NCBI RefSeq assembly: GCF_003334305.1
Contig: NZ_QOWS01000031.1
Source: Escherichia coli
GTDB lineage: Bacteria > Pseudomonadota > Gammaproteobacteria > Enterobacterales > Enterobacteriaceae
Length of the DNA stretch: 37,766 nt
Strand: one strand, 5' to 3'
The notes under the pieces were generated by a model that was not told the DNA's origin, ran no database searches, and was given only the letters and a program-made list of their open reading frames with translations. The position numbers and the translations under genes are program-made. Below are positions 26,395-34,518 of the stretch, one piece after another. Within the stretch, counting starts at the first letter, position 1; each line of letters opens with the position of its first letter.

Positions 26395-27783
26395 ATGGCA
26401 CTGCAAAATGAGAAAAATAGTCGTTATCTTTTACGCGACTGGAAACCAGAAAATCCGGCCTTCTGGGAAAATAAAGGAAAACATATTGCTCGAAGAAACC
26501 TCTGGATATCAGTCAGTTGTCTACTTCTTGCCTTCTGTGTCTGGATGCTATTTAGCGCAGTTACCGTTAATCTCAATAAAATCGGTTTTAATTTTACTAC
26601 CGATCAACTCTTTTTATTAACCGCATTACCCTCCGTTTCTGGCGCATTATTGCGTGTTCCCTACTCCTTTATGGTGCCTATATTCGGTGGACGCCGATGG
26701 ACGGTTTTTAGTACTGCAATCCTGATTATTCCTTGCGTCTGGCTCGGAATTGCCGTGCAAAATCCGAATACTCCTTTTGGGATATTTATCGTTATCGCTT
26801 TGCTATGCGGTTTTGCAGGTGCAAACTTTGCTTCGAGCATGGGCAATATCAGTTTCTTCTTTCCAAAAGCCAAACAAGGGAGCGCTCTTGGGATTAATGG
26901 CGGATTAGGAAACTTAGGTGTAAGTGTAATGCAGCTGGTTGCACCGCTGGTCATTTTTGTACCTGTATTTGCCTTTCTCGGCGTCAATGGCGTACCGCAG
27001 GCCGACGGTTCGGTGATGTCGCTGGCGAATGCCGCATGGATTTGGGTACCGCTACTGGCGATTGCCACGATCGCCGCCTGGTCAGGGATGAATGATATCG
27101 CCAGTTCACGCGCCTCAATTGCCGACCAGCTCCCTGTCTTACAACGCCTGCATCTCTGGCTGCTGAGCCTGCTTTACCTTGCCACCTTCGGTTCGTTTAT
27201 CGGTTTTTCTGCGGGTTTTGCCATGCTGGCAAAAACCCAGTTCCCGGATGTGAATATTCTGCGCCTGGCGTTCTTTGGCCCATTTATCGGTGCCATCGCG
27301 CGGTCGGTTGGTGGTGCTATTTCCGATAAGTTCGGCGGCGTGCGGGTGACGTTGATCAACTTTATTTTTATGGCGATTTTCAGTGCCCTGCTGTTCCTTA
27401 CCTTACCGGGCACAGGCTCCGGTAATTTCATCGCCTTTTACGCCGTATTTATGGGGCTGTTTCTGACTGCGGGTCTGGGAAGTGGTTCTACTTTCCAGAT
27501 GATCGCCGTCATCTTTCGCCAGATAACCATTTATCGGGTAAAGATGAAAGGCGGTAGTGATGAGCAAGCTCAGAAAGAAGCCGTCACCGAAACGGCGGCG
27601 GCTCTGGGCTTTATCTCAGCCATTGGCGCAGTGGGCGGCTTTTTTATTCCGCAGGCGTTTGGCATGTCGCTCAATATGACCGGCTCTCCGGTCGGCGCGA
27701 TGAAAGTGTTTTTAATCTTCTACATCGTTTGTGTGCTGCTGACCTGGCTGGTTTATGGTCGGCGGAAGTTCAGCCAAAAATAA
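26395..27783 (+). CDS. narU: Nitrate/nitrite transporter (MFS, NarK paralog), 462 aa
   Basis: ATG at 26395 preceded by GAGGAA; 12-TM MFS protein; recognised as NarU. Confidence 0.9.
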   Translation: MALQNEKNSRYLLRDWKPENPAFWENKGKHIARRNLWISVSCLLLAFCVWMLFSAVTVNLNKIGFNFTTDQLFLLTALPSVSGALLRVPYSFMVPIFGGRRWTVFSTAILIIPCVWLGIAVQNPNTPFGIFIVIALLCGFAGANFASSMGNISFFFPKAKQGSALGINGGLGNLGVSVMQLVAPLVIFVPVFAFLGVNGVPQADGSVMSLANAAWIWVPLLAIATIAAWSGMNDIASSRASIADQLPVLQRLHLWLLSLLYLATFGSFIGFSAGFAMLAKTQFPDVNILRLAFFGPFIGAIARSVGGAISDKFGGVRVTLINFIFMAIFSALLFLTLPGTGSGNFIAFYAVFMGLFLTAGLGSGSTFQMIAVIFRQITIYRVKMKGGSDEQAQKEAVTETAAALGFISAIGAVGGFFIPQAFGMSLNMTGSPVGAMKVFLIFYIVCVLLTWLVYGRRKFSQK

Positions 27784-27864
27784 GAGATCGATGCCTGATG
27801 TACAACCGTGTCGCATCCGACAAGGCATCAGATCCCAATTCATTCCTGGAGCAGGAGTCATGTC

Positions 27865-33146: not shown

Positions 33147-33841
33147 TGCAGATCCTCAAAGTGATCGGCCTGTTGATGGAGTATCCGGACGAGCTGTTGT
33201 GGGAATGCAAGGAGGACGCGCTGGCGTTGATCCGCCGCGACGCGCCGATGCTTACGGATTTCACCCACAACCTGCTTAACGCGCCGCTGCTGGATAAACA
33301 GGCCGAATGGTGCGAAGTGTTTGACCGTGGACGTACCACATCGCTGCTGCTGTTCGAACATGTTCATGCCGAGTCCCGCGATCGCGGCCAGGCAATGGTG
33401 GACCTGCTGGCGGAGTATGAAAAGGTCGGCCTGCAGCTGGATTGTCGGGAACTGCCCGATTATCTACCGCTGTATCTGGAGTATTTAAGCGTACTGCCTG
33501 ACGATCAGGCGAAAGAAGGATTGCTCAATGTTGCGCCGATCCTCGCCCTGCTTGGCGGTCGCTTAAAACAACGCGAGGCACCGTGGTACGCGTTGTTTGA
33601 TGCTCTGCTGCAACTGGCGGGAAGCTCCCTTTCAAGTGACAGTGTCACAAAACAAGTAAACAGCGAAGAGCGCGATGACACCCGCCAGGCGCTTGATGCA
33701 GTGTGGGAAGAGGAACAGGTGAAGTTTATTGAAGATAACGCCACGGCGTGTGACAGCTCGCCGCTTAATCAATATCAGCGACGCTTTAGCCAGGATGTCG
33801 CGCCGCAATATGTCGACATCAGTGCGGGAGGTGGGAAATGA
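33146..33841 (+). CDS. narW: Nitrate reductase Z assembly chaperone (delta), 231 aa
   Basis: Start overlaps narY stop; recognised as NarW/NarJ family. Confidence 0.9.
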
Positions 33842-34518
33842 TTCAGTATCTGAACGTCTTTTTTTACGATATCTACCCGTACATTTGTGCGACGGTGTTT
33901 TTCCTCGGCAGCTGGCTGCGCTACGACTACGGGCAGTACACCTGGCGCGCCTCCTCAAGTCAAATGCTCGATAAACGCGGGATGGTGATATGGTCGAATC
34001 TGTTCCATATCGGCATTTTGGGGATCTTCTTCGGGCACTTGTTCGGCATGTTAACGCCGCACTGGATGTACGCGTGGTTTTTGCCAGTGGCAGCGAAACA
34101 ACTAATGGCGATGGTGCTCGGCGGTATTTGCGGTGTGTTGACATTGATTGGCGGCGCAGGACTGCTGTGGCGCAGGCTGACAAATCAGCGCGTGCGTGCA
34201 ACTTCCACTACGCCGGATATTATCATCATGAGCATTTTGCTGATCCAGTGTCTGCTGGGGCTAAGTACCATACCGTTTTCAGCACAGTATCCTGATGGTA
34301 GCGAAATGATGAAGCTGGTGGGTTGGGCGCAAAGCATTGTCACTTTCCGTGGTGGATCGTCAGAAATGCTTAACGGCGTAGCGTTCGTTTTCCGCCTGCA
34401 TCTGGTATTGGGAATGACCATCTTCCTGCTCTTCCCGTTCACCAGATTGGTGCATGTGTGGAGCGCGCCGTTTGAGTACTTTACTCGTCGGTATCAGATT
34501 GTGCGTTCGCGGCGATAA
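33838..34518 (+). CDS. narV: Nitrate reductase Z gamma subunit (cytochrome b), 226 aa
   Basis: ATGA overlap with narW; 5-TM heme b subunit. Confidence 0.9.

Follow-up and report, generated by a model that had tools for sequence, protein, structure and literature searches.

How tightly are the genes of the second nitrate reductase operon of Escherichia coli tied to one another in their translation, and where does their transcript end? These are the two questions raised by the narUZYWV locus, in which each gene after narZ begins before the preceding one has finished. A sequence-only reading of the window, that is, the whole stretch of 37,766 nucleotides analyzed here (E. coli contig NZ_QOWS01000031.1), had claimed that these overlaps imply an obligate translational coupling of the subunits, and that a strong hairpin after narV closes the operon. 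We favor, with a probability of roughly 0.7, a single unit of five genes in which ribosomes would be handed over from one cistron to the next, not necessarily in an obligate manner, and in which the hairpin after narV would work as a stabilizer or weak terminator.

Identity of the Locus

The region 26395-34518 is the narUZYWV operon of E. coli, an already described second (stress/stationary-phase) nitrate reductase operon, as the sequence-only reading had recognized when calling it known biology. It matches E. coli chromosomes at 100% identity, and about 5,400 of 5,426 complete genomes carry it. The gene calls come from an ORF scan, from direct reading and translation, and from the RefSeq annotation of a genome that is 100% identical; each of the five genes has one stop only, at its end. 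The gene identities, coordinates, and overlaps given before were exact to the base, and so was the gene order, which the ORF scan and the RefSeq annotation give as alpha-beta-delta-gamma for the subunits (Table 1). NarU matches NCBIfam NF011608 over its full length (1020.9 bits vs. a cutoff of 836), and NarZ, a NarG-type alpha subunit (Mo-bisMGD catalytic, ~1,245 aa), matches the narG equivalog TIGR01580 over residues 2-1234 (2330 bits vs. a cutoff of 1084). Also above their cutoffs are NarY with the narH equivalog TIGR01660 (981 bits), NarW with NF011628 (513 bits) and narJ TIGR00684 (117 bits), and NarV with the narI equivalog TIGR00351 (427 bits).

The locus is the same as K-12 narUZYWV (b1469-b1465), with identical gene lengths, the same 81-nt narU-narZ spacer, the same junctions, and strain-level SNPs as the only differences within it, the window being 98.9% identical to MG1655 over 13 kb. 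The upstream neighbor differs, since the window has an intact gene for an LRR protein of 443 aa there, and K-12 has yddK plus a yddJ pseudogene. The paralog is narK/narGHJI (nitrate reductase A), with the same transporter-alpha-beta-delta-gamma order and 55-79% protein identity (NarU/NarK of K-12, 76%; NarZ/NarG of K-12, 79%; NarY/NarH, 79%; NarW/NarJ, 55%; NarV/NarI, 72%). That we are dealing with the Z and not the A paralog is indicated by the NarU-specific NF011608 match above cutoff, the synteny with MG1655 b1465-b1469, the narY-type best matches, and the context, namely, the linkage to narU and the adjoining yddE and fdnGHI. The activity of the Z enzyme and its RpoS- or stress-dependent expression are described in PMC8139620 (citing Spector 1999 and Blasco 1990), PMC5438342, and PMC11417348.

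The genes osmC, maeA, adhP, and fdnGHI are indeed present in the window, as a check of colinearity showed, and the proposed enrichment in backup paralogs is a descriptive claim that goes further than the evidence. The fdnGHI genes encode the principal nitrate-induced formate dehydrogenase, and their paralog fdoGHI the constitutive one.

Table 1. Features of the narUZYWV locus and its flanks, in positions of the window.
Feature	Position	Strand	Description
Region 5' of narU	26072-26394	+	Intergenic, 323 nt between the LRR-protein gene and narU; presumed operon promoter/regulatory region
narU	26395-27783	+	Nitrate/nitrite MFS transporter, 462 aa (RefSeq annotation)
Inverted repeat (hairpin), putatively REP-derived	27786-27834	+	From folding; starts 3 nt past the narU stop, inside the 81-nt narU-narZ spacer
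narZ	27865-31605	+	Nitrate reductase Z alpha subunit, 1246 aa
narZ/narY junction	31589-31605	+	SD AGGAGG (31589-31594) inside narZ; ATGA overlap (31602-31605)
narY	31602-33146	+	Beta (Fe-S) subunit, 514 aa
narY/narW junction	33134-33148	+	SD GGAGGG (33134-33139) inside narY; TAATG, 1-nt overlap (33144-33148)
narW	33146-33841	+	Delta subunit/Mo-cofactor assembly chaperone, 231 aa
narW/narV junction	33826-33841	+	SD GGGAGGUG (33826-33833) inside narW; ATGA overlap (33838-33841)
narV	33838-34518	+	Gamma (diheme cytochrome b) subunit, 226 aa
GC-rich hairpin	34527-34555	+	9 nt past the narV stop; -19.4 kcal/mol; no U-tract
Second hairpin	34572-34592	+	Centroid structure; 3' arm GGAGAAC is the yddE Shine-Dalgarno (SD) site
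yddE	34597-35490	+	PhzF-family isomerase; NF007625, 553 bits; 78 nt past narV; possible read-through gene

The Transcription Unit and Its narU-narZ Spacer

The five genes were taken as one transcription unit in an OmpR ChIP-exo/RNA-seq study that also reported OmpR binding upstream of narU (PMC5438342), and all five transcripts were raised by a point mutation upstream of narU (PMC11417348). Going by this literature, transcription would start from the promoter region upstream of narU, on the + strand of which (26072-26394) a sigma-70 consensus scan gave no match. Within the cluster, promoter-like matches were fewer than expected (3 vs. 8.4 in shuffled sequences). A single + strand sigma-70 match (9/12) lying across the narW/narV junction at 33813-33842 was considered as an internal promoter and rejected because the total count of matches is below the shuffle expectation. 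Neither the Term-seq supplement of Adams 2021 nor the SMRT-Cappable-seq supplement of Yan 2018 mentions narV, yddE, narU, or narZ. When 25500-35600 was scanned against Rfam (E <= 1), the cluster itself gave neither a NarS-like nor any other RNA family; the sole match in that interval was a sub-threshold one to the REP-derived naRNA4, downstream of yddE.

The only gap inside the unit is the +81 nt between narU and narZ, where we found no recognizable terminator or promoter. The transporter-to-alpha spacer measures 49-260 nt in narZ-type loci, whereas in narG-type loci, in which narG is served by a promoter of its own, it is mostly 310-700 nt; in K-12, the narK-narG spacer of 515 nt carries the narG promoter region, and NarS is an sRNA derived from the narK 3' end. 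The narZ gene has its SD, AGGAG, 7 nt upstream of its ATG. Another ATG at 27860 (ATG TCA TGA, overlapping the narZ start), considered as a leader mini-ORF, is probably unused because it lies only 2 nt from the SD.

The hairpin in this spacer is not followed by a T-tract. Clear REP copies occupy the homologous spacer in E. albertii, where it is 126 nt long, and in E. coli SCPM-O-B-8794, where it is 260 nt long and holds a multi-REP cluster, and in a by-eye comparison the window's spacer matches the E. albertii REP in the 3' half and flanks of the latter. Judging from this resemblance, the hairpin is probably a shortened derivative or remnant of a REP at that site. Like the REP elements found inside operons such as malE-malF, it stands between two cistrons of one operon; unlike them, it would be only a shortened remnant, unannotated as REP in MG1655 and with no naRNA4 match at E < 1.

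The 3' End of the Operon

The hairpin after narV is real, with an outer stem of 8 bp, an inner stem of 3 bp, and a z-score of -2.5 against shuffled sequences, and it is conserved in E. coli and E. albertii, while Citrobacter has different hairpins at that place. That it closes the operon, as the sequence-only reading had it, is unproven, because it lacks a U-tract and yddE lies only 78 nt later. One might still take it for an efficient terminator that ends the operon, with yddE as an independent gene, and we regard this as a possibility to be kept in mind, if a minority one. A stable GC-rich stem-loop, as an intrinsic terminator should have, does stand just past the narV stop; terminators occur at the corresponding site in other genera, with canonical hairpin-plus-T7 terminators 3' of narV in Enterobacter and Kluyvera; and the unit has been treated as five genes in print (PMC11417348, PMC5438342). 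Against this, the stem runs into ACUUGCAGGCUA instead of the U-tract (~5-8 U) of an intrinsic terminator, its loop region of 13 nt contains the inner stem, and our terminator scan made no call at 34527-34555. In K-12, narI is, in contrast, followed by a canonical intrinsic terminator (9-bp stem plus T7). Furthermore, yddE follows on the same strand, with no promoter-like site found by a promoter scan of the narV-yddE spacer, and the hairpin looks like a REP element that has been shortened. REP elements are usually mRNA stabilizers. The structure after narV is thus more likely a 3'-end stabilizer or a weak or partial terminator than an efficient intrinsic one, and if it is at most a weak or partial terminator, some read-through into yddE is plausible.

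The yddE gene is found 3' of narV only in Escherichia and Citrobacter, and E. albertii retains the sequence of the second hairpin, just before yddE, as does Citrobacter for the most part. A more speculative extension, which we consider rather doubtful, is that in these two genera the nar Z transcript would read through into yddE as a six-gene unit with a hairpin-gated SD, and that the REP remnant would tune the NarU:NarZ ratio; neither idea was found described in the literature examined.

The Overlapping Junctions

From narZ onward, the 1-4 nt and ATGA-type overlaps noted before are all there: narZ/narY at -4 (ATGA), narY/narW at -1 (TAATG), and narW/narV at -4 (ATGA). The SDs of the three downstream genes lie 4-6 nt before their start codons, within the last codons of the upstream gene, and their energies with the anti-SD (narY, -10.3; narW, -10.0; narV, -11.6 kcal/mol) are stronger than those of the narU and narZ SDs. 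According to the predicted structures, the narY initiation region is fairly open (mean P(unpaired) 0.65), neither it nor that of narW is more structured than the initiation regions of narU and narZ, which lead the cluster, and among the three downstream genes structure is greatest at narV (opening energy 15.9 kcal/mol, P(unpaired) 0.28). All three junctions therefore have two features of termination-reinitiation pairs, namely, a stop/start distance within -8 to +10 nt and an SD in the 3' end of the upstream ORF.

Such overlaps are not remarkable when compared with chance. Among the co-directional gene pairs of E. coli, 820 are at -8 to +10 nt and 1,630 at more than +20 nt, whereas pairs encoding heteromeric complexes comprise 249 at short and 111 at long distance, a 4.5-fold enrichment of short distances among complex-subunit genes (PMC10666635). 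As about 69% of the complex pairs are short, three short ones in a row are expected about 1 time in 3; and since overlaps are both the commonest operon spacing of E. coli and enriched among complexes, three consecutive overlaps are what one should expect. Other operons of the window look likewise, with +1/-4/-4/-8 in ddpA-B-C-D-F and -8 in fdnH-I.

The paralog was proposed as a comparison by the sequence-only reading, and all three internal junctions of narGHJI also overlap, with an alpha/beta ATGA and SDs in the homologous last codons, but the pattern there is -4/-4/-1 (narH/narJ -4, narJ/narI -1) instead of -4/-1/-4, and narH and narJ have weaker SDs, of -7.4 and -5.8 kcal/mol, respectively. 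We extended the comparison to 80 nar loci, whose start codons were assigned heuristically (homology-guided, with ATG and SD preferred), so single distances outside Enterobacterales may be off, but a few errors would hardly affect the class counts. The -4/-1/-4 pattern is present in all nine complete narZ-type loci (Escherichia, Citrobacter, Enterobacter, Kluyvera, Pluralibacter, Pseudocitrobacter, and unclassified isolates), and the narGHJI pattern is present in 9 of 19 narG-type Enterobacterales loci, that is, the overlapping state is held across Enterobacterales in a paralog-specific pattern. The alpha/beta overlap of -4 reaches much further, being found in 10/10 narZ-type, 18/20 narG-type, and 29/50 other proteobacterial loci (34/50 if -1 is included). 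It is the only overlap common in this last group, where spacers of 2-50 nt, many of them of 10-50 nt, dominate at the beta/delta and delta/gamma junctions, and where only 3 of these 50 loci from outside Enterobacterales overlap at all three junctions. This wide occurrence of the alpha/beta overlap alone in Proteobacteria suggests that selection is most consistent on the hand-over from alpha to beta, and the spacers of most nar operons outside Enterobacterales imply that Nar assembly needs no coupling in general.

Coupling of Translation

We propose that a ribosome terminating on narZ, narY, or narW would re-initiate at once on the next gene, aided by its SD, so that the output of NarY, NarW, and NarV would be tied to that of NarZ, and that the same SDs probably also give some independent initiation. 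Given the strong SD of its own at each downstream gene, termination-reinitiation is likely, and an obligate coupling is not implied by the sequence; as these SDs probably permit some independent initiation, the coupling would likely be strong without having to be obligate. Although we found no published experiments on the narZ/narY, narY/narW, and narW/narV junctions, there are the termination-reinitiation pairs of Huber et al. (2019, 2023), which narZYWV resembles in being co-directional, on one mRNA, at -4 or -1, with the SD inside the upstream ORF, and in having products that form or assemble one complex. The narZYWV case differs in that its coupling is a reading of the sequence and that NarW is a chaperone. 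Being a chaperone and not a stoichiometric subunit, NarW offers no obvious benefit from a 1:1 coupling to it.

The obligate coupling claimed by the sequence-only reading, by which NarY, NarW, and NarV would be translated only by ribosomes just off the upstream gene, is in our opinion unlikely. It would agree with the overlap at all three junctions in 9/9 narZ-type loci, with the predicted occlusion of the narV initiation region, and with the strict coupling of 4 of the 5 native E. coli -4 pairs tested (PMC6728339), coupling that collapses at a spacing of about 20 nt (PMC6728339; PMC10666635). However, the fifth pair, bioBF, initiates de novo (PMC6728339), the downstream SDs are among the strongest of the cluster, the narY and narW regions are by prediction no less accessible than those of the leading genes, and spacers are common in the nar operons of other Proteobacteria.

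At the other extreme, the overlaps could be a neutral by-product of compact operons and start/stop turnover (the latter shown by the swapped geometry of the two paralogs), with each gene translated independently from its own strong SD and with little coupling, but this is quite improbable despite -4 and -1 being the commonest distances genome-wide (PMC10666635) and occurring in unrelated operons of the window, given that the overlapping state was retained in every complete narZ-type and in 12/19 narG-type loci even though the protein ends diverged, that tight coupling has experimental precedent at such junctions (PMC6728339), and that overlaps are enriched among complex subunits (PMC10666635).

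Concluding Remarks

The narUZYWV operon and its paralogy to narK/narGHJI were already known, as was the fact that 4-nt and 1-nt overlaps are prevalent in operons of complexes and play a role in coupling, and the significance of this analysis beyond confirming the annotation is slight, with nothing new in these respects. What the survey adds is small, namely, that the overlap patterns are paralog-specific in Enterobacterales, and that the alpha/beta overlap alone is widespread in Proteobacteria.

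Gene Layout, Identity, and Neighborhood of narUZYWV

Each of the five genes opens with ATG and translates to one terminal stop codon, and the junctions, read directly, are +81 nt at narU/narZ, −4 (ATGA) at narZ/narY, −1 (TAATG) at narY/narW, and −4 (ATGA) at narW/narV, negative values being stop/start overlaps. The ORF scan, the junction reading, and the translation agree, and the coordinates and overlaps of the sequence-only reading were thus exact.

Features of the narUZYWV region and its surroundings (window coordinates, except for the last two rows)
Feature	Position	Strand	Description
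Leucine-rich-repeat gene	24740-26071		443 aa, intact; upstream of narU
narU	26395-27783	+	462 aa; ORF scan and translation
narU-narZ spacer	27784-27864		81 nt
Spacer hairpin	27786-27834		Long; starts 3 nt past narU stop
Mini-ORF	27860-27868		Two codons, ATG TCA TGA; overlaps narZ start ATG at 27865
narZ	27865-31605	+	1246 aa; ORF scan and translation
narY	31602-33146	+	514 aa; ORF scan and translation
narW	33146-33841	+	231 aa; ORF scan and translation
narV initiation region	33739-33867		As folded
Sigma-70-like match	33813-33842	+	TCGACA-18-AATGAT, 9/12; spans narW/narV junction
narV	33838-34518	+	226 aa; ORF scan and translation
narV hairpin	34527-34555		8-bp outer and 3-bp inner stem
Second hairpin	34572-34592		7 bp
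yddE start	34597	+	
naRNA4 match	35542-35580		Convergent yddE-nhoA spacer
ISAs1 transposase remnant	37455-37766		
Spacer, survey locus L006	3004-3263		Own coordinates
Spacer, survey locus L007	3138-3263		Own coordinates

The NarU-specific NCBIfam subfamily model and, for NarZ/NarY/NarW/NarV, the equivalogs NarG, NarH, NarJ, and NarI were all matched over their full length far above cutoff, and RefSeq places narU, narZ, narY (as narH), narW, and narV (as narI) at exactly the same positions. Window positions 26000-35000 match several E. coli chromosomes at 100% identity and are found in 5,390 of 5,426 complete genomes at a coverage of at least 80%; MG1655 (b1469-b1465) has the same layout, with 98.9% identity across 13 kb. 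Identities of NarU/NarZ/NarY/NarW/NarV to the K-12 paralogs NarK/G/H/J/I are 76/79/79/55/72%.

The remaining window is colinear with the same E. coli chromosome, in the order gadB(part)-gadC-digH-dosCP-ddpXABCDF-osmC-bdm-sra-maeA-adhP-yddM-fdnIHG-yddG-yddL-LRR gene-narUZYWV-yddE-nhoA-yddH-pptA-ISAs1 remnant. Therein lie all the genes (fdnGHI, adhP, maeA, and osmC) cited for an enrichment in backup paralogs, together with the further stress or stationary-phase genes gadBC, dosCP, ddp, bdm, and sra, but the label “backup paralog” misfits some of those cited, such as fdnGHI, which is the main nitrate-induced formate dehydrogenase, fdoGHI being the constitutive one. In place of the intact leucine-rich-repeat gene, MG1655 carries yddK, which is shorter at 318 aa, and a yddJ pseudogene, while the porin fragment yddL is a pseudogene in both strains. 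MG1655 homology stops at 37454, and the remnant that follows is succeeded, past the window end, by Rhs core proteins and then a VgrG gene; this break next to pptA marks the boundary of a strain-variable island.

Transcription Unit and the narU-narZ Spacer

OmpR binds at the narUZYWV promoter region and raises the transcripts of this unit (PMC5438342), and the five genes have been shown to behave as a single transcription unit. The transporter-to-alpha spacer measures 49-260 nt in narZ-type loci versus mostly 310-700 nt in narG-type loci, a contrast that fits a narU inside the Z operon and a narG with its own promoter. Promoter-like sites are not in excess within the cluster (3 found versus 8.4 expected), and the sole sigma-70-like match on its + strand is probably due to chance, given that total matches fall below the shuffle expectation.

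The homologous spacer contains a clear REP copy in E. albertii (126 nt) and several REPs in E. coli SCPM-O-B-8794 (260 nt), and complete E. coli genomes have two common alleles, one of 81 nt, also in K-12, and one 13 nt longer, present in 20 of 60 evenly spaced sampled rows, including ST131 and O6 strains. The spacer hairpin of the window is therefore probably a REP-derived remnant, and the spacer, judging from these sequences, appears to be a hot spot of REP gain and loss within the operon. Within Escherichia, conservation is confined to the final ~35 nt ahead of the narZ ATG, with the Shine-Dalgarno sequence (SD) among them, and the spacers of other genera (49-168 nt) fold into unrelated hairpins. 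The mini-ORF context at the narZ start (...atgtcATGag...) is kept in all surveyed narZ-type loci but one Enterobacter MAG (acgtc), and is missing upstream of narG. Elsewhere in the window, the yddE-nhoA spacer has a sub-threshold Rfam match (39.9 bits, gathering 59.5, E = 2e-4) to naRNA4, a REP-derived nucleoid-associated RNA, which is most likely an ordinary REP element.

Overlapping Junctions in narZYWV, narGHJI, and Other nar Loci

In K-12, narK/narG is +515, narG/narH −4, narH/narJ −4, and narJ/narI −1, so all three internal junctions overlap in both paralogs, with −1 and −4 exchanged at the last two. The SDs occupy homologous codons at the very end of the upstream genes (narH ACG GAG, narY GCG GAG, for example), and those of narGHJI (narH −7.4, narJ −5.8, narI −9.5 kcal/mol) are weaker than those of the Z operon (narY −10.3, narW −10.0, narV −11.6 kcal/mol).

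A NarY/NarH profile scan with one genome per species yielded 80 loci, all proteobacterial, in which alpha, beta, delta, and gamma ORFs were assigned by BLASTP and starts were picked by homology, a heuristic by which single distances may be wrong. The pattern −4/−1/−4 occurs in 9/9 complete narZ-type loci (Escherichia, Citrobacter, Enterobacter, Pseudocitrobacter, Kluyvera, Pluralibacter, and unclassified isolates); among 19 Enterobacterales narG-type loci, nine are −4/−4/−1 and 12 overlap at all three junctions, as do only 3 of the 50 other loci (Marinobacter, Halomonas, Cellvibrionales, Burkholderiales, Xanthomonadales, and others). The alpha/beta junction of these 50 is −4 in 29 and −1 in 5, and their beta/delta and delta/gamma junctions mostly have spacers of +2 to +50 nt. 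In enteric bacteria, therefore, overlap is a stable trait specific to the lineage. Broad conservation is limited to the alpha-to-beta overlap, and assembly of Nar enzymes clearly proceeds where the other two junctions do not overlap.

Co-directional genes are spaced at −4 and −1 far more often than at any other distance (Huber et al. 2023, PMC10666635); 820 E. coli pairs lie at −8 to +10 nt and 1,630 at more than +20 nt, with heteromeric-complex subunits making up 30.4% of short-distance versus 6.8% of long-distance pairs (PMC10666635). From these counts, ~69% (249/360) of complex-encoding pairs are short-distance, and three successive overlaps are thus expected for an operon encoding a four-protein assembly. 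Operons in the same window are likewise tight (ddpA-B-C-D-F +1/−4/−4/−8; fdnH-I −8), and the three narZYWV overlaps are not unusual.

Probable Translational Coupling

Ribosomes terminating at the ATGA and TAATG junctions would re-initiate on the following cistron. Strict coupling was found in 4/5 native E. coli −4 pairs (PMC6728339), and coupling is abolished by a spacing of ~20 nt (PMC6728339; PMC10666635). We consider that narZYWV translation is probably coupled to a substantial degree (roughly 70%). The overlaps had been taken to imply obligate coupling, and although the overlaps are real, a strictly obligate mechanism is unlikely, given that narY, narW, and narV each have a strong SD of their own, that the initiation regions of narY and narW are predicted to be at least as accessible as those of narU and narZ, which lead the operon, and that one of the tested E. 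coli pairs, bioBF, initiated de novo (PMC6728339); NarW, moreover, is a chaperone, for which stoichiometric coupling has no evident rationale. Negligible coupling, to be set against those strictly coupled −4 pairs, is quite improbable.

In folds of −99 to +30 around each start, mean P(unpaired) is 0.65 for narY, 0.53 for narW, 0.41 for narU, 0.51 for narZ, and 0.28 for narV, and the opening energy is 15.9 kcal/mol for narV versus 7.0 for narY and 10.5 for narW. Only narV looks masked in these predictions, and narW/narV would be the junction needing coupling, if any does.

The 3′ End and yddE

The narV hairpin, said to close the operon, is real (−19.4 kcal/mol, z = −2.5 versus shuffles), but it is followed by ACUUGCAGGCUA, with no U-tract, and received no call in the terminator scan, while yddE comes after narV on the same strand in Escherichia and Citrobacter, 78 nt on in E. 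coli; operon closure by this hairpin is therefore not established. In contrast, K-12 narI has a textbook terminator, AGACCCUGC-UUCG-GCGGGGUUU plus U7, and in Enterobacter cloacae and Kluyvera a hairpin with T6-7 comes after narV. Given that the promoter scan found no promoter-like site in the 78-nt gap, read-through from narV is suggested, with yddE translation putatively gated by the second hairpin, in which GUUCUCC pairs with the yddE SD GGAGAAC, and which is kept in E. albertii and, for the most part, in Citrobacter. The narV hairpin is possibly a partial terminator, or an mRNA-stabilizing stem allowing read-through; Rho-dependent termination after narV is also possible.

In summary, the observation of uniformly overlapping genes is confirmed and its interpretation is partly supported, while the biology of narUZYWV was, as the sequence-only reading itself stated, already known.
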